From a virus: a DNA stretch of 42,488 nt. Within the stretch, counting starts at the first letter, position 1, and each line of letters starts with the position of its first letter. The notes beneath the pieces are model-generated. The model saw only the letters and a program-made list of their open reading frames with translations, had not been told where the DNA came from and did no database searches. Below, in pieces: positions 3,075-29,802 of this stretch. The stretch is from IMG/VR virus record IMGVR_UViG_3300002460_000010, positions 1 to 42,488 of that record; one strand, 5' to 3'. Both the position numbers and the translations under genes were made by a program.

Positions 3075-3455
3075 ATGGCAAAACAATTTGGCGAGAATAT
3101 TGCGAAAAGAGTACGGCAAGGCGTTGTTATTGTTACATCCGGAGAATGGCGTTTGCTGGTCTCCAGTGGTAGCACTAATTATCCTGACCGGACTCATGTT
3201 CGTTTGCAAGCGAAAGGAAAAGTTGGAAATACGGTAGCAGTTGAATATATTAACGGCACGACTATAAATGGCGTTGATTATACTTTTGCTTCTTCTTCAA
3301 CTCTTCCGGGCAGTGTTAAAAATAGTACGCAGTTTCGGGGCACTTCAACGTGGGTCGAACCGGTAGGAGATAAAGTACAAATTTGGGCTCGTATGGACAA
3401 CAAGGCCGCTGCAACGGAAAATTCCGTTAAGGTCGTTGTCACCGAGTTCGCATAA
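3075..3455 (+). CDS. hypothetical beta-rich protein (possible virion protein)
   Basis: 126-aa ORF in the structural operon. Its stop lies 2 nt before the ATG of the Ser/Thr ORF. Confidence 0.5.
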   Translation: MAKQFGENIAKRVRQGVVIVTSGEWRLLVSSGSTNYPDRTHVRLQAKGKVGNTVAVEYINGTTINGVDYTFASSSTLPGSVKNSTQFRGTSTWVEPVGDKVQIWARMDNKAAATENSVKVVVTEFA

Positions 3456-3457
3456 AT

Positions 3458-3667
3458 ATGGCAGAATTTGCATTTGAAAACGAAACAACTCTTACCTGGA
3501 CTTCCACGTCTAGCTCCACTTCAACTTCGTCTACGACCTCAACTACGACTTCAACTAGTTCTACGACTAGCACTTCGTCTACGACTTCAACTACGACCTC
3601 AACGTCTTCCAGTACTTCGACTTCAACCAGTACTTCCAGTTCTTCAACTACAACGATGGCAGCATAG
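3458..3667 (+). CDS. 69-aa protein that is almost entirely Ser/Thr (residues 15-66 contain only S and T)
   Basis: Sequence is MAEFAFENETTLTW + 52 S/T residues + MAA. Codons are varied (tca/tcg/tct/tcc/agt/agc, act/acg/acc/aca), so it is not a simple DNA microsatellite. It shares a 21-residue S/T pattern with the tail of 10760..11908. No SD; stop-start coupled to the upstream ORF. Confidence 0.5.
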   Translation: MAEFAFENETTLTWTSTSSSTSTSSTTSTTTSTSSTTSTSSTTSTTTSTSSSTSTSTSTSSSSTTTMAA

Positions 3668-3668
3668 T

Positions 3669-4157
3669 ATGGATAAAGAATTTTGGAATATAACCTGGAG
3701 TAAGAGATACGAGAGATATAACCGCCATCATCAGGAGATATGGAGCTACCTGCATTCTCTTGATGTCTGGCGGGGCAATATAGTTGATTTAGGATGCGGT
3801 CCGTGTGTGATGTATGAAGGTAAGACTGTTTCACTAATTGGTGTCGATTGGTCGGTTGAGGCTCTGAAGCAAGCCAGAATACACTATCCTTATGGAGTAT
3901 ATATTCAAGGCGATGCTTCAAATACGGGGCTTCCTACTGGCCAATTCGATACCGTAGTGAGCTGTGGATTACTTGATTATTTTAATGACTGGAATCCTGT
4001 TATAATAGAGGCAAAGAGATTATTAAAACCTGGCGGGAAATTCTACGCGACTTTATTGCAAGGTTTTAATAATCACGACTGGTCAAGTTATCCACATATT
4101 GTGGGTAATTGGCACCTTGCCGTGTTTTCTAAGGAGGATGTCAACTTTAGAGAATAG
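3669..4157 (+). CDS. class I SAM-dependent methyltransferase
   Basis: Uses internal ATG 3669 of track ORF 3468..4157; the upstream part of that ORF is the out-of-frame read of the S/T tract. Motif I 'VDLGCGPC', then 'LKPGGKFY'. Confidence 0.7.
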   Translation: MDKEFWNITWSKRYERYNRHHQEIWSYLHSLDVWRGNIVDLGCGPCVMYEGKTVSLIGVDWSVEALKQARIHYPYGVYIQGDASNTGLPTGQFDTVVSCGLLDYFNDWNPVIIEAKRLLKPGGKFYATLLQGFNNHDWSSYPHIVGNWHLAVFSKEDVNFRE

Positions 4158-5007
4158 GATTAGGAATGAGGCCGCTAAATTAGATGGTGTGCCCTTGGCT
4201 TTGTCGGGTGGCGTGGACAGCAGTTTATTAGCGGTTCTTATAAGGCCTAAGTTCGCTATCTCTGTACAATTACCGGGGGATGAAAAATATAATGAGATTC
4301 AATACTCTACTTTAGTGGCGCAACACGTAGGTATAAAACAAGTTATTGTTGAATTGGATGAAAGTAAGTTTGATGAAGATGTAGCAATGGCGGTAAAAGC
4401 TATCGGCAGACCAATCCCCCATTTTAATATTTTCCCGCTTTTTCAGATGTATAAGAAACTGGCCGAGATGGGCGAGACTAAACTGGTTGTAGGAGACGGA
4501 CCCGACGAAATTATGTGCGGGTATGGAAGAGATTTAATCTTTAATTATTTGTATAAAGTTTATGAATTTGAAGCATTTAAAAACTATAAACCCTTGATAG
4601 ATAAATTACTTATTCCTCAAGCGTTAGCAGTTAGAGCTGTGACCAATATGGATGTAGACACGATAATAGAAGCTAATATCTTAATGAGAAAAGATATGGA
4701 CGATATGAGCAACGGTATTGCTAAACATTTCGGCATTACTAACTTCCGCCCTTATCAGGACAATCCTGAGCTTGATAACTTTATGAAAGATTTGCCGGAC
4801 GGGCAAAAAATCAAGGATGTAGAGTTTGGTAAATATGCCCTCAGAGAAATTGCCGCTAAGTACTTACCTCACGAGATTGCTTGGAGAAAGAAGAAGGTTG
4901 GCGGACCGGTCTTTCCTGTAAATATTTTTAAAGGTTGGACGGAAACTGACGGAGAGTTCGGTAAATCTAAGTGGATGGAATATCAAGAAGCTATTTTAAA
5001 TGGATAA
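4138..5007 (+). CDS. asparagine-synthetase-like PP-loop ATP pyrophosphatase (amidotransferase synthetase domain only)
   Basis: 'LALSGGVDSS' is the SGGxDS PP-loop in AsnB-type context. There is no N-terminal glutaminase domain. ATG 4138 preferred over the track's TTG 4099. Confidence 0.65.
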   Translation: MSTLENRIRNEAAKLDGVPLALSGGVDSSLLAVLIRPKFAISVQLPGDEKYNEIQYSTLVAQHVGIKQVIVELDESKFDEDVAMAVKAIGRPIPHFNIFPLFQMYKKLAEMGETKLVVGDGPDEIMCGYGRDLIFNYLYKVYEFEAFKNYKPLIDKLLIPQALAVRAVTNMDVDTIIEANILMRKDMDDMSNGIAKHFGITNFRPYQDNPELDNFMKDLPDGQKIKDVEFGKYALREIAAKYLPHEIAWRKKKVGGPVFPVNIFKGWTETDGEFGKSKWMEYQEAILNG

Positions 5008-5704
5008 AATTAGCATCATAATGACCCATTGGGCCCAGGATTCATTAAGATCCCACACTTTGCGTATTTGTCTTGAGTCTCTGATAAGAACTACGAGACA
5101 TCTGCTGGTGGAGATTATTGTAATTGATAATGGAGGCAGTATAGAAGATTCAAACTATTTATTAAATCTTTGCCATGAAAATAAGATTCAATTCTATCTT
5201 AGAAACTCTGCGAATTTATACTTTGGTTTTGCTCGAAATCTTGGGGTTGATATTTCTATTGGTAATTTTGTGGTATTTTCTGATAATGATATTGAGTATT
5301 ATCCTGGTTGGCTTGATAAATGTGTTCAGGTCTTAAATGCTTATCCTGATAGAAAGATAGCGATTACACCCTTAAGAACAGATAAAGTTCACCGTAAGGA
5401 TAATCATTATTTTGGAGAGCTTACATTGGGCGAGGAGAGGTTTCCCCTGAATATCCGAGCCGGTTCTAATTCGTGGGTTATTAGAAGAAAGGATTTTGAT
5501 GTAATAGGTAAGTTTTTAAATCACCGTGTAGCCGGAACTAAATGGACTGATAAATTTGTTAGGGACGGCTATTTAATGGCTACAATGGATTATTCACCCC
5601 TTGCTGCTGATATGGGTTATTCTTACGGGTATAATTTTACGGAGCAGGTTATTTTAAAGAGACAATTTGCTGACGGTAGTGAGGTAATTATTAATGAAAC
5701 ATGA
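5000..5704 (+). CDS. glycosyltransferase family 2 (GT-A fold)
   Basis: 'EIIVIDNGGS', 'FGFARNLG', 'FSDNDIEY' (DxD). Confidence 0.75.
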   Translation: MDKISIIMTHWAQDSLRSHTLRICLESLIRTTRHLLVEIIVIDNGGSIEDSNYLLNLCHENKIQFYLRNSANLYFGFARNLGVDISIGNFVVFSDNDIEYYPGWLDKCVQVLNAYPDRKIAITPLRTDKVHRKDNHYFGELTLGEERFPLNIRAGSNSWVIRRKDFDVIGKFLNHRVAGTKWTDKFVRDGYLMATMDYSPLAADMGYSYGYNFTEQVILKRQFADGSEVIINET

Positions 5705-6165
5705 AGTTAAGTATAGGTTCTGGTCGTAAAAGTTACCCAGGATACAAAACCATAGATGTAGAATCCTACGCTAATCCTGACTATTTAGGAGATTTTAGAA
5801 CGATGTCTTTCTCAGACTTAGACGAAATAAGAGCCCATCACTTACTGGAACACTTTAGCCGACAGGAAGGAGAGAAAGTAATAAAACTATGGTATTCTTG
5901 GTTAAAAACAGACGGCATGTTGATAGTTGAGACTCCTGATTTTGAAGGAATATGCGATAATTTTAGGAAGGATAAGTACTGGATGACTAGGCATGCTTAT
6001 GGTTCTCAGGAGGCGGAATGGGCCTATCATCGGGATGGTTGGTATCAAGAGAAGTTTGAGTTTATTCTACCAAAACTAGGTTTTAATATTATAGAAATAA
6101 GAAAATCGGTATCTCGCAAGATACTGCCGAATATAACGGTAATTGCTAAAAAATATGAAATATAA
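5701..6165 (+). CDS. class I SAM-dependent methyltransferase (Methyltransf_11/23-like)
   Basis: 'LSIGSG' glycine loop, 'HHLLEHF', '[12 protein letters not shown]'. ATGA-type overlap with the upstream GT. Confidence 0.6.
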
Positions 6166-7087
6166 AAAAGTATTAGTTACGGGTGGAGCGGGTTTTCTCG
6201 GCTCTATTGTGGTGGAAAAACTTATAAAAAGAGGAGTGCTTAAAAAGAATATTCTAATCCCCCGTTCTAAAAATATGGATTTAAGGAAATGGGAGAATTG
6301 TGTTAAGGCGGTTAAGGGTCGGGATTTGGTAATTCATTTAGCCGGTGATGTGGGCGGGATAGGGTATAATAGGGAGAACCCCGGTTCAATGGTTTTTAAT
6401 AATTTGATGATGGGGATTCAATTAATGGAGACGGCTAGGCAGGCAAAAGTTAAGAAATTTGTAACAGTCGGGACTATCTGTGGATATCCTAAGTTTACTC
6501 CCGTTCCTTTCAAAGAAAAAGATTTTTGGAATGGGTATCCCGAAGAGACTAATGCTCCTTATGGTTTAGCTAAGAAAATGTTATTAGTTCAAGGTCAGGC
6601 TTACCGGCAACAATATGGTTTTAATTCTATTTATCTTATTCCCGTTAATCTTTATGGGCCGGGAGATAACTTTGATCCAGCTTCTTCTCATGTTATTCCG
6701 GCTCTTATCAGAAAGGTTGATAAGGCTATTAAGAATAAGGATAAATATATAGAAGTTTGGGGTGACGGCAGCGCTTCCAGGGAATTTTTGTATGTTGATG
6801 ACGCGGCTGAGGGGATTGTTTTAGCTGCCGAGAAATACAATAAATCGGAACCTATAAATTTAGGAGTAGGTTCAGAGATTACTATTAAAAAATTGGTTAC
6901 TCTGATTTGTCATTTAATGTCGTTTAAAGGAAAGATAAAATGGGACAAGTCAAAACCTAACGGTCAGCCCCGCAGAGTGCTGGATATTTCCAGGGCTAAG
7001 AAAGAATTTGGGTTTGAGGCTAAGCAGAATTTGATAATAGGGTTGTATAATACTATTAAGAAATACCATGAAATATACGGGAAATAA
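6155..7087 (+). CDS. fcl: GDP-L-fucose synthase-like NAD(P)-dependent epimerase/reductase
   Basis: '[13 protein letters not shown]' Rossmann loop, 'NAPYGLAKK' (YxxxK), and '[23 protein letters not shown]', which closely matches the conserved Fcl/WcaG/GMER block. ATG 6155 preferred over TTG 6143. Confidence 0.75.
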
Positions 7088-7610
7088 TAGCCCTGATTAC
7101 TGGGACAATAGTTGGAGGAATAATGTGAAGAAATTTCCAAGATATACAATGAACCGGGTTTTTGGGTTAATTCCTGATAATGTTTCGGTGCTGGATATAG
7201 GTTCCGGTGATGGCACTTTTTTAAAAAGATTACAGACTAAGAAAAATTGTCAGGTCTATGGTATTGATATTTCTTTTATCGGCATTGAGAAAGGTAAGAA
7301 TATTGGAGTTCCCGGAGAGGTGAGAAGCGCGGAAGAAATGGATGATTTTGATAAAGAAGCCGATGTGGTTATTTGCAGTCACCTATTGGAACACGTCGGA
7401 GATGACAAGGGGGTGGTAAGAAATATTGCCAGACTGGCTAAGCAATTTGCTGTTATAGCTGTCCCTAATAATTGTTCTTATCCGGAAGAGACGGGAGAAC
7501 ACGTCAGGAAGTATACTAAAGAATCATTGAAAGAACTACTTTCGGGTTTCTTTCGGGTGGTGGAAAATCACACTCTCGGTAATCACTTAATATTCAAATG
7601 TCTAAAATAG
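7068..7610 (+). CDS. class I SAM-dependent methyltransferase
   Basis: '[11 protein letters not shown]' motif I, '[11 protein letters not shown]'. Confidence 0.7.
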
Positions 7611-8278
7611 TTTCACACACTCTTTGTCGGAACGGCCAACCCTTTATAGGAGAGGTTCTTAAAGCTGCTCTACCGATTGTGGATAGAATGATAATAACCA
7701 TTTCTAAGCGGTCAAATGACGGGACAAGGGGGGTTATAGAGGCCCTGAATAGCCCTAAGATTGAGCTATACGAGGAGGAAGTCAGTAATCTTGGCTTGCT
7801 TACCCAAGAACGTCAAAAACAGGTAGATATGACCGATAAAGGTGATATAATCTGGTTTTTAGATGATGATGATTTTTGGCAAGAAGAACACGCCAGGGCT
7901 TGTATTGGAGTGTTGCAAACTAATGATTTTGATGCAGTCAGTGTCAATCCTTATCAGGTGATTGGGAAAAATATGCAAGATGCAAACTGGATCAGTAGGA
8001 AATATTTTACTAAATTCTTTAAGAATGTGGATATTAATTACAGGCATCCCTGGCCCAGAGATATAATATTTAAGGGCGACCAGCATCTTTATTGGAAAGT
8101 TAACAGGAGAAACCCAAGAGTGCCGTTTAAGTTTTTTCACCTTGCTGAAGTAAAGGGGCATTCTTTCAGGAATTATGAACTAAAGGATTTCAAATATCCT
8201 GATGTTAAACCCACTTCTTTAGTGGCAGAATTACCTAAGCCAATATATGAAATTCTCAATAATCGCGCCAATATTTAA
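7598..8278 (+). CDS. putative glycosyltransferase (GT-A-like)
   Basis: 'RMIITISKRSNDGT' and acidic 'IIWFLDDDDFW' (DxD-like). Resemblance is weaker than for its neighbours. Confidence 0.45.
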   Translation: MSKIVSHTLCRNGQPFIGEVLKAALPIVDRMIITISKRSNDGTRGVIEALNSPKIELYEEEVSNLGLLTQERQKQVDMTDKGDIIWFLDDDDFWQEEHARACIGVLQTNDFDAVSVNPYQVIGKNMQDANWISRKYFTKFFKNVDINYRHPWPRDIIFKGDQHLYWKVNRRNPRVPFKFFHLAEVKGHSFRNYELKDFKYPDVKPTSLVAELPKPIYEILNNRANI

Positions 8279-8897
8279 CGAAGAGAAGTATATAAAAAGA
8301 ATGATAGATTCTGTTTTTGAGCAGGGAGTTGACTTTGAATTGATTTTAATGGATGGAGGCTCTACGGATAAGACACATGAAATTATTAATACTTATCATG
8401 ATCCCCGGCTCAAGTTGATAATTATGCCTCATAGATTTTGGAACGAAGAAGATAAAATAAACAGTGTCCAGACCAGGGCTAATATAGGGATATCTTTGGC
8501 CGAAGGGGATATATTCTTTTTGTCTTCGGGTCACGATTGGTTTTTCCCGGGAGCTTTGAAGATAGTAGAAAAAGAAATAGGAGACAGTATTTGGTTAATG
8601 GGCAGATTGGCAAAAGTTGATGAAAATGGTAGAATTGTTAAAAAGATAGCTAATATCCGTTATTCATGCGGTTTTATCAAGCTTGATTTTATCAGAAAAT
8701 ACGGCATAAAACTTGATATTTCCCTGGCTGCCGCGGATTATGACTTGTTTATGCAGGTTCGCAAGTATGCCGGAGAGCCTAAGAGAATTGAGGATTATTT
8801 ATATAAATATATGCTACATCCGTCGGCTTTGAGTAAAAAATTCAACGGAAGAATGAAGAGAGAAAGGAAGAAATTGGATTACCTGTATGGGGTTTGA
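8247..8897 (+). CDS. glycosyltransferase family 2
   Basis: 'FSIIAPIFNEEKYIKRMIDSV', 'ELILMDGGSTDKT'. Paralogous to the N-terminal half of 9422..10744. Confidence 0.7.
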   Translation: MKFSIIAPIFNEEKYIKRMIDSVFEQGVDFELILMDGGSTDKTHEIINTYHDPRLKLIIMPHRFWNEEDKINSVQTRANIGISLAEGDIFFLSSGHDWFFPGALKIVEKEIGDSIWLMGRLAKVDENGRIVKKIANIRYSCGFIKLDFIRKYGIKLDISLAAADYDLFMQVRKYAGEPKRIEDYLYKYMLHPSALSKKFNGRMKRERKKLDYLYGV

Positions 8898-8946
8898 TTT
8901 GATATAATAAATATGGTCGATTAATTAATTAAAGGAGGAAAATATA

Positions 8947-9414
8947 ATGTCAAAGAATTTTGTGGCTTTAAAAATAGCTATAGTAAAACCAAGTTATCTG
9001 AATTTACCGACTCATCCTTCCGGGCATGATGGTTATGAAATAGATCAGCACGGTATTGGTATGCATTATGATAAGGGTTGCTGTGATTTTGACGATAATG
9101 GTTTTCGTTATGCGGTAACAGCTTTGCCGGAGGAAAGAGCGAATGCTTATATAGCTAGAGGCCAGGGTAGAGTTGTTAAAATGACTGAAGCGGAAGCGGA
9201 AGCTTTCTTTGTTGAGCATTGTAAATATGAGCCGGAAGAAGTGTTTGATTTGGACAGATTGCAAGCTATCAAATTAAAGAAGGATTTTGGTTTGCCTTTA
9301 ACGGAAGATGATAATAATGCTATTAATCCTGATAATGCTTTTGTCAGGGGTATTTCTAAGAATTTGAAAAAGGGATTTAGAAATAAACTTCCTAAAGACG
9401 CGATAGTTTTATAA
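8947..9414 (+). CDS. hypothetical protein inside the sugar-enzyme island
   Basis: 155-aa ORF with strong SD (taaaggaggaaaatataATG). No motif recognised. Confidence 0.6.
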   Translation: MSKNFVALKIAIVKPSYLNLPTHPSGHDGYEIDQHGIGMHYDKGCCDFDDNGFRYAVTALPEERANAYIARGQGRVVKMTEAEAEAFFVEHCKYEPEEVFDLDRLQAIKLKKDFGLPLTEDDNNAINPDNAFVRGISKNLKKGFRNKLPKDAIVL

Positions 9415-9421
9415 CTCAATT

Positions 9422-10744
9422 ATGGAGGAAAGTAAATTAAAAATTACTTGTGTAATACCCGTTTTAAACGGAGCTAAGTACATCGCCAAAGCTATTCAAA
9501 GCGTTCAACAGCAGGAAGAACCTTGGGAATTAATGATAGTAGATGGCGGTTCAACTGATAATACGGAAGAAATTGTAAGGGAATTTAATGACCCAAGAAT
9601 AAGGTTTGTCTCAATACCAAACTGTGAAGGTCCGTATGTTCAAGAAGACGAAGGTATCAAATTAGCTACCGGAGACATCTATCACAATATGGGCTGTGAC
9701 GATACGGTCCTTCCTGGTGCTTATAAGACGGTTCGTGAGAACATTGGTGATGCAGAATGGATGTACGGAAATATGGTCGTCTACAATGAGGACTATCAGT
9801 TCAAGCGCGAGAATCATTCCCCTATTTTCAACTATCATCACTATATGGAGGGTAATATGCTCGGAACTCCCTGTTCGTTTATAAGGCTGGACTTTATTAA
9901 AAAGCATAACCTAAAACATACAGGCAGGTGGTTAAACGCTGATTACTATTTTTTACGACTTTGCGCCCAGAAGGCAAAACCGAAACAGATTGGTGATATG
10001 TTGATAGGGATTATGGCTAGAAAAGACTCTATTACTGGTCAAAATTCTAAACAATTTTCTGAATGGAAATTAGAGATGATGGAAGAGCTTAATCAGCTTC
10101 CTTTGCCCGATTATGCTAAAGAAGAGGTGGTTAACCCTAAAGTTCTGATAGCTATAGGCCATCACGGGACGGTTAGAACCGAGATGCTACAGGTTGTGGC
10201 AACTATGATAACTGACGGGAGATGTAGAATAAAGATAATCTATCCTGGTGATAGAATGACTGAAGAGAGGTTCGCCAAGCTAGGAAAAAAGGTGGTTAAA
10301 GAGGGCTGGGACTTTTTATTGAGTATTGATGCTGATAATCCGCCTATTAAAAATCCATTGGATTTAGTCTTCCTAAACAAGGATGTTATGGGCTTGCCGA
10401 CTCCACAATGGTATAATGAAGATAAATACCCAATATTTTGGACAGCTTTAAAGAAAGTACCTAATGGCTGGGATCAGTGGGAAAATAGAAAAGGTTTACA
10501 ACAAGTAGATGCAGTTGGTTCAGGATGTATTATAATTAAGAGAAAGGTGTTCGAGGCCCTTCCAGACGCTCCCTTTGAAAGGAAATGGAATAAGGACGGA
10601 ACACAGGAGTCGGGTGCAGATTTCAACTTCTGTGAAAGAGCAAAATCAAAGGGATTTGAGATTTGGACCCACTTCGACTATCCATGTTCGCACTTTAAGG
10701 AACTGGACTTACTGGAAGTGCTGAAGTTCAAACATAGAGATTAA
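9422..10744 (+). CDS. two-domain glycosyltransferase (GT2 N-half fused to a second GT-A-like C-half)
   Basis: N-half: 'ITCVIPVLNGAKYIAKAIQSV', 'ELMIVDGGSTDNT'. C-half: 'LLSIDADNPP' (DxD), 'GSGCIIIKRKVFE', 'GADFNFCERAKSKGFEIW'. Confidence 0.65.
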   Translation: MEESKLKITCVIPVLNGAKYIAKAIQSVQQQEEPWELMIVDGGSTDNTEEIVREFNDPRIRFVSIPNCEGPYVQEDEGIKLATGDIYHNMGCDDTVLPGAYKTVRENIGDAEWMYGNMVVYNEDYQFKRENHSPIFNYHHYMEGNMLGTPCSFIRLDFIKKHNLKHTGRWLNADYYFLRLCAQKAKPKQIGDMLIGIMARKDSITGQNSKQFSEWKLEMMEELNQLPLPDYAKEEVVNPKVLIAIGHHGTVRTEMLQVVATMITDGRCRIKIIYPGDRMTEERFAKLGKKVVKEGWDFLLSIDADNPPIKNPLDLVFLNKDVMGLPTPQWYNEDKYPIFWTALKKVPNGWDQWENRKGLQQVDAVGSGCIIIKRKVFEALPDAPFERKWNKDGTQESGADFNFCERAKSKGFEIWTHFDYPCSHFKELDLLEVLKFKHRD

Positions 10745-10759
10745 GAGGAGGAATGGCTA

Positions 10760-11908
10760 ATGCCGGCATTTTTATCGGGCAACCTGGTATATTCTGATTT
10801 AACTGGTTCCGCTAAGAGGACATCTGCTTTTACTTCTACGGTTCAGGCTTCTTTTACTGCAACCGGAATAACCGGAGCAACTACGGATGCTGCGGATTTT
10901 TATGGTTGCGTTGATTCAACCGATAAACATACCAGATATTCAGGTTTTACTTCAACGGTAAAAAGTTCATTTACAGCGGCTAATAATAATTTAGGTATTA
11001 CTTGGGATGGAAAATCTCCTGCTAGATATTATACGGGAGACAACACTAATACTAAAATAAAGAAGTTTTCAGGCTTTACTTCAACTGTAGCTTCTAGCGT
11101 AACTAGCTTAGACTCTCCTTGGGATGTTACGTTTGATGAAACTGATTGTTATTATTCTGATTTTACCGGTACTGTTAGATTAGTAAGGTTATCTGCTTTT
11201 ACATCTACGGTTAAAGCTTCCATAGCATCTCCTGGCACTGGTCCTAGAGGTATTTCTATTCAAGAGAGTAATTTGCTTTCATCGAACGCTGCGGCTGACC
11301 CAAATAATAAGGTATATCAACATAGTGCTTTTACTACGACTATAAAAGTTTCTTTTCAAAGAAGTGACGTTCACGGTATGGAGTGGGATGATTATGCTAC
11401 TAGAGCTCAGGATGCAACTACTACTTCTTCGTCTACTAGTACGTCAACCTCCACTAGTACAAGTACATCAACTTCTACTTCAACTTCTACCTCTACGTCT
11501 ACTAGCACTAGTTCTACATCTACCAGCACGAGTACGTCAACTTCTACTTCTACTTCCACTAGTACAAGTACGTCAACATCTTCTTCTACTACTTCAAACA
11601 CTTCTTCTTCTACATCATCATCTACTTCAAGTTCGACGACTTCTAATACCGAATCAACTACTTCTTCGACAACTACTTCTACTTCTACCTCTACTTCTAC
11701 TTCTACCTCTACTTCTACTAGTACCTCTACAAGTACAAGTTCTACTACCTCTACTTCTACTTCTACTTCCTCTACAACTTCTACTTCTTCCACAACTTCT
11801 ACAACAACTTCCACCAGTTCTTCCAGTTCTACTACTACCCAACCGCCCTATATGGTGCCGCAAGTAGACATCCAGGAGTTTAAGCCAATTATAGATACTA
11901 TGGTATAA
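10760..11908 (+). CDS. repeat-domain protein with a ~140-aa poly-Ser/Thr ('mucin-like') tract and short C-terminal tail; candidate glycosylated virion fibre/decoration
   Basis: SD gaggagg lies 8 nt upstream. The N-terminal 215 aa hold 5-6 copies of S(A/G)FTSTV(K/Q)(A/S)SF spaced about 39-44 aa apart. Residues ~220-360 are S/T with only a few N/E. The protein ends QPPYMVPQVDIQEFKPIIDTMV. It lies between the last GT and the tail genes. Confidence 0.6.
   Translation: MPAFLSGNLVYSDLTGSAKRTSAFTSTVQASFTATGITGATTDAADFYGCVDSTDKHTRYSGFTSTVKSSFTAANNNLGITWDGKSPARYYTGDNTNTKIKKFSGFTSTVASSVTSLDSPWDVTFDETDCYYSDFTGTVRLVRLSAFTSTVKASIASPGTGPRGISIQESNLLSSNAAADPNNKVYQHSAFTTTIKVSFQRSDVHGMEWDDYATRAQDATTTSSSTSTSTSTSTSTSTSTSTSTSTSTSTSSTSTSTSTSTSTSTSTSTSTSTSSSTTSNTSSSTSSSTSSSTTSNTESTTSSTTTSTSTSTSTSTSTSTSTSTSTSSTTSTSTSTSSTTSTSSTTSTTTSTSSSSSTTTQPPYMVPQVDIQEFKPIIDTMV
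11417..11839 (+). repeat. coding low-complexity Ser/Thr tract (varied codons) within 10760..11908
   Basis: Read directly from the translation. Other frames give artefactual LRLQ (+) and VEVE (-) ORFs. Confidence 0.9.
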
Positions 11909-15632: not shown

Positions 15633-15643
15633 GAGGGTAAAAA

Positions 15644-17113: not shown

Positions 17114-17114
17114 T

Positions 17115-21319: not shown

Positions 21320-21945
21320 TTCCCTTTAATAATACCATATAATTGTATTGCCTTATGTTGATAAGTATCTGTTTCTTTATGACAACTTTTACACAGGGTT
21401 CTGCCATTAGAAACCTTAAATCTTAATTTAGGGAAATAAGCAAAGGGTAAAATATGGTCAGCTTCTAGTTTTCCACCCCTCTTTTTACACCATACGCAAG
21501 TCCAGTTATCTCTTTTAAAAACCTTTCTGCGCCATATTTTATATTTTAAGCTTTTTCTAATTAAATTATTAATAGAAGTAACTCCTCCCCTCCATGCTCT
21601 ATTATTACTTCCTAAATTCCAATATGCAGATTTTCCTACCCTTGCTTCTTTTAATTTTTTGACATAACTATCAGAAAATTTTTTATTTAACCAATATCTT
21701 ATTTTTGGCCTTAATTTATTTTTATAAAGAAACTTTTGTTTGGCACTAATTTTCTTTTTAGTTTTAGTTGTCTTTAACCTCCCTTTATTACTATCAGATA
21801 AAGCTTTTAATCTACATAAATGAGAGCAGTATTTATTAGGATTATACTTCTGAAGCTTTTTAATTTCAAATATATTATTGCACCTGTGGCAAGTTGTTTT
21901 TGTCATATTTATCTTTCTTATAAACATAGTCCCATAATTCTTCAA
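21316..21945 (-). CDS. HNH endonuclease with Cys-rich N-terminal repeats
   Basis: 'CVWCKKRGGKLEADHILP…NGRTLCKSCHKE', with N-terminal 'CHRCNN…YCSHLC'. The likely true start is ATG 21927 or 21906; the track start is TTG. Confidence 0.75.
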   Translation of the reverse strand: MKNYGTMFIRKINMTKTTCHRCNNIFEIKKLQKYNPNKYCSHLCRLKALSDSNKGRLKTTKTKKKISAKQKFLYKNKLRPKIRYWLNKKFSDSYVKKLKEARVGKSAYWNLGSNNRAWRGGVTSINNLIRKSLKYKIWRRKVFKRDNWTCVWCKKRGGKLEADHILPFAYFPKLRFKVSNGRTLCKSCHKETDTYQHKAIQLYGIIKGK

Positions 21946-23053
21946 TTATAAACTTATTTAAATCTTTTTGATATATTGAATTTTCATAAGCTTCTTTTGC
22001 GGGTCCTGCGGATTCTTTTAAAAGTTGGAGCCAAGTAGGATGATAAATCAACATAGATGAATTAGTTTTACCATGTTTTTCCATATTCCATTTATCCCAA
22101 GGCCGCTGAACGATTAATTCATTAAATGTCATTTTCCTGCGGTTCTCAATAGTAGCTCTTCTTTTTACCATTTCTATTTTTGCCTCTGCCATCATTTGGT
22201 CTAATGTATCTTTCCTTCCTTTCCTTAAATAGTTTATATATGCTCTCTCAATCCAATCATCAGCTCCTAAAGCCCAGCCACAATTAAAGATATTGTGGAT
22301 ATATGAATCGTGATGATAAACATAATTTCTACCTGAAGATAGATGATAACCGATTGCATTAGGGTCAGTAACTACAGTAGAACCATACATCCACCAAAGA
22401 CAATCGACGAATACTTCACCCCCGCCATAAGTCCTGTGAACTTCCGGATAGCCGCCAAAATCTAAGAACTGATCTCTCTGAACCATCACTCCCCAATGGC
22501 CTTGTCCGGCTACAGCAAAGGGAGTATCGGCAACTTTGTAGTTATTCCAAGTCATCTTCCATTCTTCCCCTAATTTAAAAGTATAACCATAACCCATACC
22601 CCCATGATGGGGTGGATAAGCTCCCATCCATTGTACTGAACCATGTACAATTCCTCCTGTGTCTTGACAGGTCTTAATTATAGATTTAAAAAATCCTGGC
22701 TTAAAAGCAATATGAGCATCTGAGAAGTATAAATATTCTCCTCTAGCTATCTGGGCTCCTTTGTTCCGCGCGGAATGATTACCTGCTATTGGGTCGTACA
22801 AAACTCTAACTTGCCTAGACCAAAACATTCCTCGTGGCATAAAGTAAGAGGTAGTTCCTTTCGTTCCTTTTTGAGGCCAGAAATTATTATCAGTAGAACA
22901 ATTATCAACAACTATAATTTCCCAATCTTCAGGAGAGAATCCATCTGCCTCAAGGCAATGAATAGCGGAGTAGATCGTATGAACGATGTTCGGAAATTCG
23001 TTACGGGCGGGAATGATGACGCTTAGTTTTAGTGTGGGTTTAGGTGGTAACAT
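21875..23053 (-). CDS. GT-A fold glycosyltransferase (GT2-like, DxH variant)
   Basis: 'LSVIIPARNE', 'IIVVDNCSTDN', 'YFSDAHI', 'YGGGEVFVDCLWWMYG'. Confidence 0.65.
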   Translation of the reverse strand: MLPPKPTLKLSVIIPARNEFPNIVHTIYSAIHCLEADGFSPEDWEIIVVDNCSTDNNFWPQKGTKGTTSYFMPRGMFWSRQVRVLYDPIAGNHSARNKGAQIARGEYLYFSDAHIAFKPGFFKSIIKTCQDTGGIVHGSVQWMGAYPPHHGGMGYGYTFKLGEEWKMTWNNYKVADTPFAVAGQGHWGVMVQRDQFLDFGGYPEVHRTYGGGEVFVDCLWWMYGSTVVTDPNAIGYHLSSGRNYVYHHDSYIHNIFNCGWALGADDWIERAYINYLRKGRKDTLDQMMAEAKIEMVKRRATIENRRKMTFNELIVQRPWDKWNMEKHGKTNSSMLIYHPTWLQLLKESAGPAKEAYENSIYQKDLNKFIIEELWDYVYKKDKYDKNNLPQVQ

Positions 23054-23324
23054 TTAATTTTAACCATAAGTTGGCTATTGCTGCTTCGGGAGTTGAGCCG
23101 AAGGTAAAACATAATTCCAGATCACCTTCGGCCATCCATTTATCAAGTGCATCTTGCCTGTAATTGAGAGCCTTAAATCTATTTCCACACGCTTCTATAA
23201 GTTCAGAGAGAGTCGGGAATCTCTCGTTAAAGGTAACCTTAGTTCCGTCGGGTAATTCCATAACGCCAAAAGAAATTGGTTTAAACCCCGCGTCTTTTAA
23301 TTGTTTTGCTAATTCGTAGTTCAT
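23040..23324 (-). CDS. hypothetical protein
   Basis: ATG 23324 forms an ATGA overlap with the stop of 23321..24340 (MNYELAKQLKDAGF…). The track start 23345 is less likely. Confidence 0.55.
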   Translation of the reverse strand: MNYELAKQLKDAGFKPISFGVMELPDGTKVTFNERFPTLSELIEACGNRFKALNYRQDALDKWMAEGDLELCFTFGSTPEAAIANLWLKLNVTT

Positions 23325-24340
23325 ATATTTTTTGGGAATCTGCATTTTGCTAATAAAGGTGTGTGGGTTGTATCAATTCCTGTCGGTTCACCTGCGGCTG
23401 AGAAGAACTGCACCTCTTCAAAGAAATGAGAGAGGACGGCATGGAACTCCTGGCTCGTGAACTCGCGGACGTGATAGATATTTCTGGGCTTATCCTTTTG
23501 GATCGTCTTATGATTCCTATTAGGCGTAGATATGAAATACTCTGTAGGGTTATCTTTGCTTTTAGTATCAAACTTCTTGGTTATCTGCTCCAAGAACTTA
23601 TAACAATCCGCTATATGCTCTATTATCTCTATCGCCACGACTATATCAAACTTCATCGTCTCTCTATTCTCATTTACAATATCAAAGACATCAAAACTAA
23701 CTTGACTATTGTAATAAACACCATTCTTAACCCTAGTAAATGCTTCTTTAGCGAACTGAACACTAAGCTCATTCTTATCTATGCCCCATACAAAATCAGC
23801 TTCTTGAGAAATAACATTAGAACCAACACCCGAACCACAACCCACATCTACGACTGTCGGCTTCCAAATAAACTTAGGGTATTGAGGATGCTGGGTAGCC
23901 TTCCACATACAGTGGTTCTTGATGAACTCATACATCAACCGTGTCGGCTTCCACAATAAAACACCATTGTGCATAAATAAATCTATATTAGCCTTCACCT
24001 GGTTCTTATCCGGCATCTCCGGATTTTCCTGATAATCAGGATCTGAAATAAGGGTGTTGGGAGTCGCGACCTCAGTTTTACTCTCGTTTAAAGGCATCGT
24101 AGGAGCTTGTTTTTCCTCGGTTTGGGTATTTTCTAAGGATAAGGCCGCTTTGCCGGAAGGTTCATCTATAGGCTGAGTTTGAACTATATTTTGAGGTTGC
24201 TGTCTCAATTCTTCTTCTTCTTTCTTCTTATCCTCTATCTCTTTGGCTTGTCGGTCATAACAGACATAGCAAAGAAGATTAACAAAGTCATCCGGTATAG
24301 GGCTTTCGCATACATCGCATTTTTTATTTTGTTCCGACAT
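23321..24340 (-). CDS. zinc-ribbon + class I SAM-dependent methyltransferase fusion
   Basis: N-terminal 'CDVCESPIP…CYVCYD', an E/K/Q-rich linker, then 'VVDVGCGSGVG' motif I and 'IVVAIEIIEHI'. No DPPY/SPPY motif, so probably not a DNA amino-methyltransferase. Confidence 0.65.
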   Translation of the reverse strand: MSEQNKKCDVCESPIPDDFVNLLCYVCYDRQAKEIEDKKKEEEELRQQPQNIVQTQPIDEPSGKAALSLENTQTEEKQAPTMPLNESKTEVATPNTLISDPDYQENPEMPDKNQVKANIDLFMHNGVLLWKPTRLMYEFIKNHCMWKATQHPQYPKFIWKPTVVDVGCGSGVGSNVISQEADFVWGIDKNELSVQFAKEAFTRVKNGVYYNSQVSFDVFDIVNENRETMKFDIVVAIEIIEHIADCYKFLEQITKKFDTKSKDNPTEYFISTPNRNHKTIQKDKPRNIYHVREFTSQEFHAVLSHFFEEVQFFSAAGEPTGIDTTHTPLLAKCRFPKNI

Positions 24341-24460
24341 ATTTTAATAAGTAATTAGTTAATTTATTACAAAGAAATAATAAAAACTCAACAAAAAAAC
24401 TACCTCGTTTATAAACCTGCCTACCTTCTGCTCCTTTTAACCACATTTGAAATTCTTTTA

Positions 24461-24655: not shown

Positions 24656-24657
24656 TG

Positions 24658-26136: not shown

Positions 26137-27571
26137 CGTTGGCCTCCACCAAAATTCCTTTAGTTGTAATTAACAACGACACAATAGACACGGCAGATTC
26201 CACGCCCGCAATCAGCACCTCCACCGGATCTATAATATCTTCTCCAACTTCTAATTCTTTTACCTCCATATTCTCTAACAATTGTTGGTGAGGATATTTA
26301 AGAGCAGCATTTAAAATACCGCTGGATGTTTTAATCTCGCCTAAAGTAACACCCGCACCCATTACTACACCATCTTTAAACGCTACCTTGGTTGCATTAA
26401 CCGCGTCTTCCACCTTGTACCTTAAGGCCTTCATTTCATTCTCCGTAGCGCCACCGACCTTTATAACCGCTACGCCGGAAGTTAGCTTGGCTAACCGGTC
26501 CTTCATCTTATCTTTCTTTAACTCTGATTCTGTAGTTTCAATAATAGCTTTGAGCTTGGTAACATACTCATCTATCTTCTTGCCGTGTCCTCCGACTATA
26601 GTTGTAGAATCCTTAGTAAGAATTACTTTGTCGGCCATACCCAGGTCCTCTAATTGCACATCCTCTATCTTCTTCCCTAAGTCGCCGGCAATAAAGCTGG
26701 AACCGGTAAGCTCGGCTACATCCATTAAGAACTCATACTTATCATTGGAATAGTATGGAGCTTTAACAGCAGGGAAGAGGCCGACACCCTTTACGTAATT
26801 TATTACTAATGTGGCCAAGGCCTCTCCCCTGATGTCATCAGCTATAATGAGGAGCTGCCTGTTCCCCGACGCCACTACTTTGTTCATTAATGGAACTAAC
26901 TCCTTTACATCTACCAGCTCCCTATCAGTTACGAATATATAGGGCTTATCCAATATCGTCTCGGCCTTCTCCGGGCTATTAATAAAATAAGGAGAAGCAA
27001 AACCACGGGGGAACTGGAGGCCTTTTACTACGGTATGGGTCGTCTCCATCGAGCGGGATTCTTCTATAGTAACAATGGCTTCATGGCCGAGTTCAGATAG
27101 AATCTCGGAAATAACCTCAGCCATCTTTTCGTTATTAAAAGATATATAAGCTACTTGCTTGAGGTCTTCTTTGCTTGTTATCTGTCTGGCTTTGGCTTTT
27201 ATCTGAACCTTGAACTCTTCTAACCCTTGTTGTAAGTCAGCTATAACTTCACGGGCTTTGTAAGATTCCAGTGCCTTGATTTCTTTCATCAACGCTTGAA
27301 GCATTATAAGAGAGGACGTTGTGCCGTCACCAACGCGATCATTGGTCTTCACGGCTACTTCTTTTACTAGCTGAACTACGGAGTTCTCAAACTCATCCGG
27401 TAATTCAAACTCTTTAGCCGTAGCAACGCCATCATCTATTACTTCTTGGCGATTACCACGTTGGAGGATTACTTTATTCTGAGCCGGGCCGTAAGTAGGT
27501 TTTACAAAATCACAGAGCTTATCAACGGCGTCAAAGATTAATGGGTTTAGTTTTTGGGTGTATTTTTTCAT
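26108..27571 (-). CDS. groEL: group I chaperonin GroEL/Cpn60 homolog (short, 487 aa)
   Basis: 'VGDGTTSS', 'QFPRGFASPYFIN', 'LLIIADDIRGEALATLVIN', 'AVKAP', 'GVAVIKVGGATENEMKALRYKVEDAVNATKVAFKDGVVMGAG' all align with conserved E. coli GroEL blocks. It lacks the GGM tail and about 45 aa of the C-terminal equatorial region. Confidence 0.9.
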   Translation of the reverse strand: MKKYTQKLNPLIFDAVDKLCDFVKPTYGPAQNKVILQRGNRQEVIDDGVATAKEFELPDEFENSVVQLVKEVAVKTNDRVGDGTTSSLIMLQALMKEIKALESYKAREVIADLQQGLEEFKVQIKAKARQITSKEDLKQVAYISFNNEKMAEVISEILSELGHEAIVTIEESRSMETTHTVVKGLQFPRGFASPYFINSPEKAETILDKPYIFVTDRELVDVKELVPLMNKVVASGNRQLLIIADDIRGEALATLVINYVKGVGLFPAVKAPYYSNDKYEFLMDVAELTGSSFIAGDLGKKIEDVQLEDLGMADKVILTKDSTTIVGGHGKKIDEYVTKLKAIIETTESELKKDKMKDRLAKLTSGVAVIKVGGATENEMKALRYKVEDAVNATKVAFKDGVVMGAGVTLGEIKTSSGILNAALKYPHQQLLENMEVKELEVGEDIIDPVEVLIAGVESAVSIVSLLITTKGILVEANDEKDKPLQS

Positions 27572-28917
27572 TCGTAGTAAAGTGGCTCAACCTGGTGCTT
27601 AAAGATATGGTCAAGCGAATAATTCTTGAGCAACTCTCTCTGCCCCAATAGAGGTTTATTTATATTCATTTGGTTTTCTATAATCGCCGCCCAGTCAGCG
27701 TAATACTTGTCTTCATCAGTATAATTAACTACGGTGTCTTTACTCCCAAACTCCATATATAAAGAATGGTCTCCACCAAATTCTCTAAGCTGAGGGACAT
27801 TGGCATTTAAAACGAGGAGGTTCTTTGATAACATAGCCTCCAATAATATCAGCGAACAGTTCTCACTAATTGTAGGAAATACGAATAAGTTTGACAAGAG
27901 GAAAAGTTGAGAAACTATCTCTCTACTTACCCCAGCTTCATACTTCGGGATTTCTTCAAGAGACGTAAAGATAACTTCATCAGGATCAAGCCCCCAAGAA
28001 GCAAATGTAGCTTGTAAACTTTGAATATTTTTCTTTTCCCTTTCATGATTAGCGTGAGCATTGGCGATAATATATTTAACTTTGTGTCCTCTGGCTTTGA
28101 GTTTAGCGAATACTCTAACCGCTTTCTGAACCTGTTTACCATCCACCATCCGAGTAGAAGAAAGAGGATAAATCCCCATGTAATCAGCAGATAATAAATC
28201 ATATTTATTAATTAAGTTTATAACAAAAGGGTCAAGTTGCCAAAAGGTTCTGGGGTCTACTACATTGTGGACAACCCGGACTTCGGATAACCAAGTTCCA
28301 TACATTTCAGCTAAAGCCAGGGCATGATAGTTGTTTAAGTAAATTATCTTAGCGTTGCGGGGTTTGTTAAATCTAAAGCTATGTATACCGGTAGGTTCTC
28401 TTACTGATGGAGCTGAATGAGTCCAGAGAAGCCATTTGGCTTTAATCAAATCATACTGGCAAATCTCGTGAATAGCTCCGCAATAAGGAATATAGGTGTC
28501 AATGAAGTGCATATCATGAGCAATCATCACATCTATGTCGGCAGCGAACTGTCTCAGAGCGCTCACGACAAGCTTAACCTCGTCCTTAAATTCTTCTGGT
28601 TGGCCGAAGCTCTTGTATTTTTCCAGTATTAATTGAGGGATGACTTTTCTAATCTCCACTCCTTTAGGTATTTTGTCATCATCTTTAAATGACGGCAGAA
28701 CGAATAAGACACATTTATATCCGTGCTTGAGGTTCATTTCGAGTTGGTCATGGATAACCGAAGTAACTGAATAAGCCCTACTCCAGTCGTAGTGCGTGGT
28801 CATAAAACCGATTGTCTTCTTAAGTTCCTCCATAGTTTGATACTTTCTCCTGGCAGTGAAGCCAGAGAGCGGGGATTTCTCCCTCCCCCAGTAGATTGCT
28901 CTACCAGGAGAAAACAT
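27568..28917 (-). CDS. GT-B fold glycosyltransferase (GT4-like)
   Basis: 'FVFPTISENCSLILLEAMLSKNLLVLN' (GT4 C-terminal EX7E-type block). Its stop overlaps the GroEL ATG (ATGA). ATG 28917 overlaps the upstream TGA (TGATG); ATG 28833 (MEELKK…) is an alternative. Confidence 0.65.
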   Translation of the reverse strand: MFSPGRAIYWGREKSPLSGFTARRKYQTMEELKKTIGFMTTHYDWSRAYSVTSVIHDQLEMNLKHGYKCVLFVLPSFKDDDKIPKGVEIRKVIPQLILEKYKSFGQPEEFKDEVKLVVSALRQFAADIDVMIAHDMHFIDTYIPYCGAIHEICQYDLIKAKWLLWTHSAPSVREPTGIHSFRFNKPRNAKIIYLNNYHALALAEMYGTWLSEVRVVHNVVDPRTFWQLDPFVINLINKYDLLSADYMGIYPLSSTRMVDGKQVQKAVRVFAKLKARGHKVKYIIANAHANHEREKKNIQSLQATFASWGLDPDEVIFTSLEEIPKYEAGVSREIVSQLFLLSNLFVFPTISENCSLILLEAMLSKNLLVLNANVPQLREFGGDHSLYMEFGSKDTVVNYTDEDKYYADWAAIIENQMNINKPLLGQRELLKNYSLDHIFKHQVEPLYYE

Positions 28918-29288
28918 CAAATCTCATATTTCTTGATCCAGTTGCAGTTAGCGCATAATAGCTGATACCGGTTCTTATCTACTTCTCCTTTTATAATTTT
29001 TAAATATATTTTACGCTTACTTAAACCGTATTTCTTCCTGTCTTCCGGTGCATCATCGTTAACATGGTCTAGCTGTAATACTCTGTAATCAGAATTATCA
29101 CACCTTTTACATTTACCACCATACATTTCAAGCAATAATAACCTTACTCGTTGTTCGCGACTCAGTGACCGTACCTTAGTCATTACCTCATCATAGTCCT
29201 CCCTAGATGCTTTTCTAATGGGGACTTTCGTCACCATTATATTATACAATAAATCTTGATATATGTTATCAACAAGCTTAATTTCCAC
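28917..29288 (-). CDS. HNH endonuclease
   Basis: 'CKRCDNSDYRVLQLDHVND' and 'LLCANCNWIK'. The start is uncertain: GTG 29288 directly abuts GGGAGG, and ATG 29237 is the alternative. Confidence 0.7.
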   Translation of the reverse strand: MEIKLVDNIYQDLLYNIMVTKVPIRKASREDYDEVMTKVRSLSREQRVRLLLLEMYGGKCKRCDNSDYRVLQLDHVNDDAPEDRKKYGLSKRKIYLKIIKGEVDKNRYQLLCANCNWIKKYEI

Positions 29289-29801: not shown

Positions 29802-29802
29802 T

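Follow-up and report, generated by a model that had tools for sequence, protein, structure and literature searches.

Serine/threonine-tract proteins and a sugar-enzyme island in an uncultured podovirus-like phage: a candidate module for virion O-glycosylation

The DNA stretch analysed here (IMG/VR virus record IMGVR_UViG_3300002460_000010, positions 1 to 42,488, hereafter the window) comprises 42,488 nucleotides (nt) and represents approximately the whole genome of an uncultured podovirus-like phage. On its plus strand, positions 3458-11908 carry an island of co-oriented, mostly overlapping open reading frames (ORFs) between the head genes and the downstream virion genes. The island contains a mini-ORF of 69 amino acids (aa) rich in serine and threonine (S/T), nine enzyme genes, an unassigned 155-aa gene and the gene of a 382-aa protein, and it encodes five glycosyltransferase (GT) domains. 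We favour, with modest confidence, the reading that this region is a cytoplasmic O-glycosylation module acting on S/T-tract proteins of the phage itself, which would then be displayed on the virion. A preliminary description made from the DNA letters had already proposed that the phage O-glycosylates its own virion proteins. The connection between S/T proteins and enzymes that this presupposes is now backed by comparative evidence, and we infer that the S/T tracts are glycosylated, that the products reside on the virion and that a methylated deoxyhexose is part of the glycan.

That the S/T proteins and the enzymes are functionally linked is made much more likely by the selection on S/T composition, the fixed position of the two bracketing S/T genes, a recurrent cassette of GT and propeller genes, and the lack of membrane segments, carrier or export functions and DNA-hypermodification genes. 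The simplest reading of this lack is carrier-independent cytoplasmic glycosylation of proteins encoded in the operon. Segments resembling transmembrane helices were found neither in the enzymes of the island and of a second cluster on the minus strand nor in the other island proteins, the maximal 19-residue hydropathy being at most 1.65 versus 1.9-2.3 for the lysis ORFs. Pfam and NCBIfam searches of both clusters revealed no phosphoglycosyl transferase, flippase (Wzx/GtrA), polymerase, exporter or Gtr component, and no DNA hypermodification gene (hydroxymethylase, thymidylate-synthase-like, DNA kinase) was present among the window ORFs scanned.

Two serine/threonine-tract proteins

Runs of more than six S/T residues occur only in the mini-ORF (80% S/T, 52 of these residues in an unbroken run) and in the 382-aa protein (53% S/T overall, longest run 62). 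As the longest run in the other 43 ORFs is 6, a chance origin of these runs is excluded. The two S/T-rich ORFs that the preliminary description had placed as brackets around the island proved to be real genes under selection at the protein level, with positions kept in relatives, and the order and coordinates of the ORFs given for the island were confirmed as well.

The mini-ORF starts with an ATG 2 nt past the stop codon of the gene for a 126-aa protein, and a single nucleotide separates its end from the ATG (3669) that opens the first methyltransferase gene. It is kept in six lineages, the window and five others (relatives are designated by L numbers in the following), with the same ends, a length of 57-86 aa and the common pattern M[AS]EF..E.TLTW, pure S/T core and TTTM[APV]. 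Its position between the 126-aa gene and the start of the island with methyltransferase and AsnB-like genes is constant. In the five further lineages the major capsid protein (MCP), where it is on the contig, is 90-94% identical to that of the window, whereas the 126-aa protein shares just 55-64%. The DNA of the mini-ORF is identical across four independent public assemblies. In a strain variant (L026, L027) whose 126-aa protein is identical to that of the window, the S/T ORF reads MAEFAFTQLTASNFSFTTTSSS..., measures at least 175 aa and runs to the contig end; the length of the "mini" protein is thus widely variable within the population. Assemblies seem to break inside S/T tracts.

A readthrough or frameshifted continuation of the 126-aa protein was rejected as an explanation of the mini-ORF, since in the window the -1 frame is open over no more than the last 27 nt up to the upstream stop and a slippery site is lacking. 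The frame relation to the upstream gene also differs between lineages, being -1 in the window and in frame directly after the TAA in L019 and L028, which identifies the mini-ORF as a separate ORF rather than a recoding extension. Microsatellites or assembly artefacts were rejected as an explanation of the S/T tracts because all ten S/T codons are used, the longest exact repeat spans 29 nt, four assemblies agree in this DNA and synonymous divergence is dominant.

The 382-aa protein starts with MPAFLSGN and ends with IIDTMV. Its C-terminal ~140 residues had been described as almost pure S/T, and a tract of 141 such residues was indeed found, but it is followed by the non-S/T peptide QPPYMVPQVDIQEFKPIIDTMV. 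The view of this protein as a dedicated carrier was given up: it is modular and fibre-like, with a propeller head, a stalk and a candidate docking peptide, and its N-terminal 219 residues are folded and not acceptor-like. In an AlphaFold2 (AF2) model of this N-terminal part, built on an alignment of 11 homologs, five four-stranded blades close a ring, and each blade carries one S-[AG]-F-T-S-T-[VI] motif as a loop plus strand. Foldseek returned YVTN, NHL and the five-bladed 3mbr propeller at probability 1.0 and template modelling (TM) scores of 0.56-0.66 (0.64 for 3mbr, a Xanthomonas glutaminyl cyclase); the fold is alike, with a sequence identity of only 10-17%. For the idea of a tachylectin-like lectin, the Foldseek search with its generic propellers speaks neither for nor against. 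The blade motif defines a separate metagenomic family with 3812 representatives at E<=1e-3, for which neither Pfam nor PHROG holds a model.

Compared with the homolog in L009, 42 codons of the stalk are identical, 78 differ synonymously, 19 exchange S for T or vice versa and 2 show other changes. This preponderance of synonymous and S/T exchanges indicates that selection acts strongly on the protein to keep the S/T composition of this frame. Nucleotide identity between the window and L009 amounts to 66% in the stalk and 78% in the propeller, and the adjoining GT is 79% identical. All ten S/T codons are used in the stalk, in proportions matching the genome background. The mini-protein and the 382-aa protein share an identical 22-residue S/T pattern in which just 6 of 22 codons are identical (p about 0.001-0.005 under two null models).

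The C-terminal motif ..P.[VI]D.[QR]E[FY]KPI[IV].. ends the propeller protein of L009 and also S/T proteins with other N-terminal domains in L031 and L029. L031 encodes a propeller protein of the same architecture, accompanied by a 155-aa protein 75% identical to that of the window, and at 6561-9119 an 852-aa protein with an N-terminal domain of ~390 aa (starting MARLWSCGFE), an S/T tract of ~430 aa with regular SSNTES and the ending ..IPEIDLQEFKPIINLD... An ORF of 125 aa lies between these two genes. The protein of L029 begins with another, unrelated N-terminal domain of ~560 aa, continues with an S/T tract and reaches ..LGPYMTPEVDTQ, where the contig end cuts the gene. The same stalk plus peptide on differing N-terminal domains marks the peptide as the constant element and the heads as interchangeable, and the peptide is a candidate docking motif.

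Public gene callers favour alternative frames over these regions, L/R/Q/P-rich on the plus and V/E-rich on the minus strand. These were rejected, as only the S/T frame is conserved and continuous from the propeller to the C-terminal peptide. The mini-ORF is missing from every public gene annotation and is replaced there by a TTG-extended methyltransferase or a minus-strand V/E-rich ORF; the exact 382-aa product is absent from the gene-position index, consistent with miscalling. Miscalled ORFs over S/T DNA were seen in the window at 3439-3921 (minus), 3468-4157 (plus) and 11407-11814 (minus) and also in L022-L027 and L031, where the gene calls over ~4 kb of S/T-protein genes consist of minus-strand ORFs of 104, 112 and 495 aa. 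With wrong-frame or wrong-strand calls over S/T regions in the public records examined, such systems are at present invisible to surveys.

The 126-aa protein upstream of the mini-ORF has its variable sites clustered in the middle, while the C-terminus ..V(I/V)VTEF(A/S) is kept (window versus L018, L019, L028, L029 and L030). From this pattern it looks like a candidate fast-evolving, surface-exposed partner of the head module. Matches to it were absent from Pfam, PHROG and PDB, and profile searches of PDB and PHROGs yielded nothing below E=0.02.

The recurrent cassette, the enzymes and the genome

A search of metagenomes for the same synteny, suggested in the preliminary description, recovered the bracketed island in relatives and, in eight diverged lineages including the window, a trio composed of the 155-aa gene, a GT with a C-terminal domain termed KWNKDGT and the propeller gene. 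In all 8 the KWNKDGT domain is located immediately upstream of the propeller. The window combines a two-domain GT with a (TS)n tail on the propeller, and (TS)n tails were also found in L009 and L031/L032. In L002-5/L013 the trio (53/41/39% identity, the 41% referring to the two-domain GT in L002) occupies another genomic position adjoining the portal gene and has no S/T tail. The propeller of L011/L012 carries an (SSISSSP)n tail of ~210 aa, and L017 combines a stand-alone GT domain of 207 aa with a poly-Ser tail of ~100 aa. In L010 and L014 the propeller is cut by the contig end, the GT domain of L014 being fused to a methyltransferase. The Ser-rich tails on the propeller thus fall into three unrelated types, (TS)n, (SSISSSP)n and poly-S, which evolved independently.

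The preliminary description had listed a two-domain GT. Its N-terminal half is a Pfam GT2 domain, and its C-terminal half, the KWNKDGT domain, is GT-A-like by weak matches: phrog_1574 (E=5.5e-10), phrog_12406 annotated as "glycosyltransferase" (E=0.002) and Pfam Glyco_tranf_2_3 in 4 of 8 members (best E=0.005). The domain contains an invariant D..D(A/D)DN motif of the DxD type. Searching 50,697 phage records with 9422-10744 by tblastn returned generic matches to the GT2 N-terminal domain and no mycobacteriophage homolog. The complete Manatee Spring phage MW202711.1 encodes a KWNKDGT-type GT between the MCP and an adaptor-like gene and has no propeller. Fold prediction, which had been proposed as a check, was informative for the N-terminus of the 382-aa protein; for the 155-aa protein (AF2 predicted local distance difference test, pLDDT, of 74) it led to no Foldseek match below 1e-3.

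Among close relatives, the 5' end of the island (mini-ORF, methyltransferase, AsnB-like gene) and its 3' end (155-aa gene, GT-GT, stalk proteins) are kept. In between, relatives with an MCP 90-94% identical have swapped enzymes and encode other epimerases, extra GT2s, an AsnB with glutaminase domain or a large methyltransferase-containing protein. With fixed ends and differing enzymes between them, the island behaves as a surface-glycan locus. The translation signals were compared as well. Canonical Shine-Dalgarno sites are almost confined to genes of abundant structural proteins. A canonical AGGAGG precedes the MCP gene, the 248- and 114-aa head genes, the portal gene, the 465- and 489-aa virion genes and the 155- and 382-aa genes, the latter with GAGGAGG. 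None of the enzyme genes has a canonical AGGAGG and just one has a weak GAGG; most enzyme and early genes are without a Shine-Dalgarno site and overlap their neighbours.

The Pfam scan supported three methyltransferases, an amidotransferase with the Asn_synthase domain only, four GT2 domains and a short-chain dehydrogenase/reductase (SDR) epimerase/reductase. Most of the functions named in the preliminary description thereby held: the AsnB-like amidotransferase and the methyltransferase at 7068-7610 were matched, and the three genes at 5000-5704, 7598-8278 and 8247-8897, one of which had been called GT-like, are all Pfam GT2. Three assignments were adjusted. The first methyltransferase is genuine, but it starts at ATG 3669 and not at TTG 3468, which belongs to an out-of-frame reading of S/T DNA. 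The one at 5701-6165 matches a PHROG weakly and neither Pfam nor NCBIfam. For the supposed GDP-fucose synthase the best NCBIfam match is indeed GDPFucSynFcl (NF047922; E=5e-78), but the score of 262.7 bits is below the equivalog cutoff of 500, so that the protein is to be called Fcl-like and not an equivalog. The sugar and methyl enzymes of both clusters cover 10,908 nt or 25.7% of the window, less than the nearly 30% estimated previously. In relatives, methyltransferase 1 is 62-77% identical and always follows the mini-ORF; the AsnB counterpart of L030 is distant (25% identical) and has extra GATase domains.

The second cluster is composed of a GT2, a methyltransferase, a UDP-sugar dehydrogenase-like and a GT1 gene, interspersed with GroEL and HNH-like genes. 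UDP-glucose/GDP-mannose dehydrogenases are usually considerably longer than 267 aa, and the product of 25205-26008 may be a truncated or repurposed enzyme. A 252-aa ORF at 77-835 of L011, upstream of a GT2 and the trio, resembles this product by size alone. No match to 27568-28920 was obtained among PDB sequences at E<=1, and thereby no GtfA-like initiating enzyme was identified. Three Cys-rich HNH/zinc-ribbon-like ORFs lie among the sugar enzymes at 21316-21945, 24658-25275 and 28917-29288 (all minus; one with Pfam HNH at E ~1e-4) and suggest mosaicism of the homing-endonuclease type in this cluster. The coordinates of all features are listed in Table 1.

Table 1. Features of the window and of its two sugar-enzyme clusters (SAM, S-adenosylmethionine; pTM, predicted TM score)
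Feature	Position	Strand	Remarks
Scaffold-like	82-744	+	
MCP	763-1782	+	phrog_9953 E=5e-52
126-aa protein	3075..3455	+	always immediately upstream of mini-ORF; ends ..VTEFA; 13 homologs
S/T mini-protein, 69 aa	3458..3667	+	N-terminal MAEFAFENETTLTW, 52-residue pure S/T core, ending TTTMAA
SAM-dependent methyltransferase 1	3669..4157	+	Pfam Methyltransf_11 E=2e-15; true start ATG 3669
AsnB-like amidotransferase, synthetase domain only	4099..5007	+	Pfam Asn_synthase E=3e-23; start probably about 4138
GT2	5000..5704	+	Pfam PF00535 E=1.5e-15
Probable small SAM methyltransferase, weak	5701..6165	+	phrog_5399 E=4e-5; no Pfam/NCBIfam match
Fcl-like (GDP-L-fucose synthase-like) SDR epimerase/reductase	6143..7087	+	Pfam Epimerase E=1.5e-51
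SAM methyltransferase 3	7068..7610	+	Pfam Methyltransf_23 E=3e-18; weak match to MftM (mycofactocin oligosaccharide methyltransferase)
GT2, divergent	7598..8278	+	Pfam PF00535 E=1.2e-8, 35.5 bits vs cutoff 23.3
GT2	8247..8897	+	Pfam PF00535 E=3e-18
155-aa protein, trio gene 1	8947..9414	+	53% identical in L002; distant homologs in L014 (E=2e-7) and L017 (E=2e-4); AAGGAGG upstream
Two-domain GT, trio gene 2	9422..10744	+	N-half Pfam GT2 E=1e-20 (residues 10-136); C-half ~10124-10744 = KWNKDGT
Five-bladed beta-propeller domain of 382-aa protein, residues 1-219	10760..11416	+	AF2 pLDDT 88, pTM 0.86, 20 strands
Poly-(Ser/Thr) stalk, 141 residues (220-360)	11417..11839	+	
C-terminal peptide, residues 361-382 (22 aa), and stop	11840..11908	+	QPPYMVPQVDIQEFKPIIDTMV; conserved, non-S/T
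Downstream virion genes	11931-18911	+	
CHAP endolysin	19338-20273	+	
Replication and accessory genes	about 20966-36583	-	
GT2, second cluster	21875..23053	-	Pfam PF00535 E=7e-18
SAM methyltransferase with N-terminal extension	23321..24340	-	Pfam Methyltransf_31 E=3e-12
Short UDP-glucose/GDP-mannose dehydrogenase-like, 267 aa	25205..26008	-	Pfam UDPG_MGDP_dh E=2.5e-10; N-terminal and central domains only
GT1/GT4-like	27568..28920	-	Pfam Glycos_transf_1 E=4e-6; phrog_2170 E=1.6e-8
Terminase	38425-39912	+	
Cpn10 (GroES-like)	39913-40173	+	E=4e-12
Portal	40531-42219	+	

The window had no near match among GenBank phages in a megablast search, and the nearest GenBank relatives of its MCP (Manatee Spring phages, a TM7 phage, Mx8/Mx9 and BUCT555) are 25-31% identical. 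Scanning GTDB genomes with MCP and GT profiles revealed no relatives, and the window contains no tRNA genes. The phage recurs in several public assemblies, including a contig of 44,230 bp, ANAN16-1 (SAMN03842440), SRR2090157, ERZ27254756 and ERZ4903185; its relatives stem mainly from Hainich groundwater and other metagenomes. A complete chaperonin pair is encoded, a GroEL-like protein at 26108-27571 (minus; Pfam Cpn60_TCP1 E=5e-31) and the GroES-like Cpn10 directly after the terminase gene, a position it also has in relatives; such a pair is unusual for a 42-kb phage genome. A DNA N6/N4 methylase is encoded as well, and a 102-aa ORF at 37531-37839 (plus) contains LAYLAGIIDGEGHI, which by eye resembles a LAGLIDADG homing-endonuclease motif.

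Proposed mechanism and competing explanations

Under the reading of a cytoplasmic O-glycosylation module, the KWNKDGT-type GT, possibly aided by the abundant 155-aa protein, would late in infection attach the first sugar to Ser/Thr residues of the propeller protein and the small S/T protein, and the variable GT2 and GT1 enzymes would lengthen the glycan chain. The Fcl-like reductase, the dehydrogenase-like protein and the AsnB-like amidotransferase would make deoxyhexose and uronamide-type sugars from nucleotide-sugar precursors of the host, and the methyltransferases would cap the glycans. Dense glycosylation would stiffen the S/T tracts into protease-resistant, hydrophilic rods, which may be anchored to the particle by the C-terminal peptide of the stalk and, in the small protein, by the N-terminal MAEF..TLTW. 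If they are stretched out as in mucins, tracts of 140 and 430 residues would measure roughly 35 and 100 nm. The propeller would thereby be held away from the particle, a layer of glycan "hair" would be formed, and the cassette would vary from strain to strain like O-antigen loci.

In a wider and more speculative form, which we put forward tentatively and hold to be somewhat less than an even bet, podovirus-like phages from aquatic and bioreactor habitats would build mucin-like appendages from a modular kit. It would comprise interchangeable heads (the propeller, the ~390-aa domain and others), poly-S/T stalks of hypervariable length, one docking peptide (..P.VD.QEFKPI(I/V)..), a free S/T "hair" protein with an N-terminal anchor and strain-variable, O-antigen-like enzymes. 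The initiator would be an unrecognised polypeptide O-GT, the KWNKDGT GT-A domain, together with a 155-aa partner of novel fold.

Several points weigh against the favoured reading. Glycosylation is predicted here from genes, both phage and host being uncultured, and the virion location is deduced only from gene position and Shine-Dalgarno strength. GT2 and GT1 families act mostly on lipid-linked or sugar acceptors, no GT of this window reached a curated protein-O-GT family, and the best PDB match of the KWNKDGT profile, the GT25 procollagen galactosyltransferase, is not significant (E ~0.5). The second enzyme cluster sits among non-structural genes on the opposite strand. S/T/P-rich tracts, which can be plain linkers, occur in ~6 of the 150 top representatives of the propeller family (about 4%). 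Finally, the trio of L002 lacks an S/T tail, and the propeller is found in structural modules without a GT nearby (L006-L008). Neither tail nor GT is therefore obligatory for the propeller, and the conserved GT cannot depend on the tail alone.

It is possible, albeit rather unlikely, that the S/T tracts are unmodified linkers or spacers and that the enzymes act elsewhere, most plausibly on host envelope polysaccharide or teichoic-acid-like polymers via the lipid-carrier and export machinery of the host, with a possible role in excluding superinfecting phages, masking receptors or releasing progeny. GT2, GT1, Fcl-like, UDP-sugar dehydrogenase and AsnB-like proteins are indeed the typical content of O-antigen or capsule loci, the best NCBIfam matches are GTs of exopolysaccharide, colanic-acid and teichuronic-acid synthesis, and the nearest PHROGs families are labelled "moron/host takeover" and "GtrB-like O-antigen conversion"; S/T/P linkers also turn up in a few further propeller-family proteins. 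However, neither cluster encodes an initiating phosphoglycosyl transferase, a flippase, a polymerase or a membrane protein, and the island is located within the late virion operon and not in a moron or lysogeny position. Action on host polymers also leaves unexplained why the S/T brackets stay put while the enzymes change and why a specific GT is tied to the propeller gene in 8 lineages.

Glycosylation of the virion could instead target folded proteins such as the GFTST loops of the propeller, the capsid protein or the 126- and 248-aa head proteins, with the tracts as mere spacers. We regard this as improbable. It would accommodate the trio without a propeller S/T tail in L002, the KWNKDGT-type GT beside the MCP of a propeller-less phage and the invariant F-T-S-T loop motif on every blade. 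The latter, however, is conserved over more than 3800 representatives, including L006-L008 without a nearby GT, and is thus more likely structural or ligand-binding, and neither the strong selection for pure S/T composition nor the presence of a separate S/T mini-protein heading the island would be explained.

Even less probable in our view is a precursor similar to those of ribosomally synthesized and post-translationally modified peptides (RiPPs), in which a 14-residue leader of the mini-ORF would be read by the methyltransferase, the AsnB-like enzyme and the GT, and a heavily glycosylated non-virion peptide with an adhesive, protective or signalling role would be released at lysis. The gene arrangement fits this idea, in that tailoring enzymes directly follow a short ORF whose N-terminal segment is conserved and whose core varies, and in NCBIfam the AsnB-like protein is weakly similar to lasso/macrolactam cyclases, as are the GT2s to peptide glycosyltransferases of the SunS type. 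These similarities are far below the family cutoffs, though, the core can exceed 175 residues, its S/T pattern and TTT ending recur in a large protein of the structural module, and no protease or exporter gene is present. Glycosylation of phage DNA bases as restriction protection is hardly plausible, even though phage GTs are classically DNA-modifying (PMC12619734) and the window has a DNA methylase, given that no hypermodification gene was detected in the scanned ORFs, that seven GT domains with O-methyltransferases and sugar-nucleotide enzymes point to an oligosaccharide rather than to a mono- or di-glycosylated base, and that the genes lie within the virion operon.

Comparison with known glycosylation systems

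Phages that glycosylate their own virions are already known, but the demonstrated cases are confined to a few mycobacteriophages. This goes back to Freeman et al. 2023 (Cell Host Microbe 31:1216), the sole study of the matter cited in the literature searched, which reportedly found little evidence of virion glycosylation outside mycobacteriophages. In the literature searched and the GenBank phage collection, we found no described phage poly-S/T stalk with docking peptide, no S/T mini-protein heading an island and no GT-propeller cassette. If the cytoplasmic glycosylation of S/T proteins proposed here is true, self-glycosylation would extend to an unrelated and environmentally widespread group of phages and would work differently there, dedicated mucin-like S/T proteins taking the place of capsid tails as acceptors, and a quarter of a 42-kb phage genome would be spent on the phage's own glycocalyx. 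The system would also offer a candidate new polypeptide O-GT domain and, for bacterial O-glycoengineering, compact enzymes free of membrane segments together with a minimal acceptor of 57-86 aa.

As summarised in two papers, GTs of the mycobacteriophages Che8, Corndog and Myrna glycosylate virion proteins by O-linkage in the cytoplasm, and the sugars are placed on the C-terminal ends of major capsid and tail-tube subunits (PMC12363180, PMC12619734). Phage-encoded GTs are associated with virion genes in both cases, in the window as five GT domains between the MCP and the downstream virion genes. In contrast to the mycobacteriophages, the MCP of the window (17% S/T) ends with ..RYSITG and has no S/T extension, no tail-tube gene was recognised, and the candidate acceptors are separate proteins, namely the free S/T mini-protein and the modular stalk proteins. 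The enzyme set, which is deduced from genes, is much larger and makes up about 26% of the genome. In the tblastn search, made with the GT at 9422-10744, no homology to Che8 gp110 or Corndog gp38 was seen.

Giant viruses decorate the chlorovirus capsid protein Vp54 and the fibrils of mimivirus and other Megavirinae with rare, methylated, bacterial-like sugars, using their own GTs, methyltransferases and nucleotide-sugar enzymes (PMC9614988, PMC10117803). The virus-encoded enzyme classes, their organisation in clade-specific clusters and, under the reading proposed here, the decoration of capsid or fibrils are alike. However, these viruses infect eukaryotic hosts and have genomes of 0.3-1.2 Mb, and their acceptors are the MCP with atypical N-glycans or fibril proteins of the GMC-oxidoreductase type, not poly-S/T proteins.

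The serine-rich repeat proteins (SRRPs) of bacteria, such as Fap1, GspB, PsrP and the L. reuteri SRRP, are glycosylated in the cytoplasm by dedicated sets of soluble GTs (PMC6973325, PMC5207161). By analogy and not by homology, they share with the S/T proteins of the window a long Ser-rich region next to a folded binding domain, adjoining strain-variable soluble GTs and, under the reading proposed here, a stalk that projects the domain. They differ in that no GtfA/GtfB pair was detected in the window, where the sole GT-B candidate is 27568-28920 with a weak Glycos_transf_1 match, and SecA2/SecY2/Asp, a signal peptide and an LPXTG anchor were not found in the scanned ORFs. The repeats of the window are (T/S)n instead of SxSx dipeptides with A/V/E. 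Whereas SRRPs carry a wall anchor, the 382-aa protein would be a component of the virion and ends in a candidate docking peptide.

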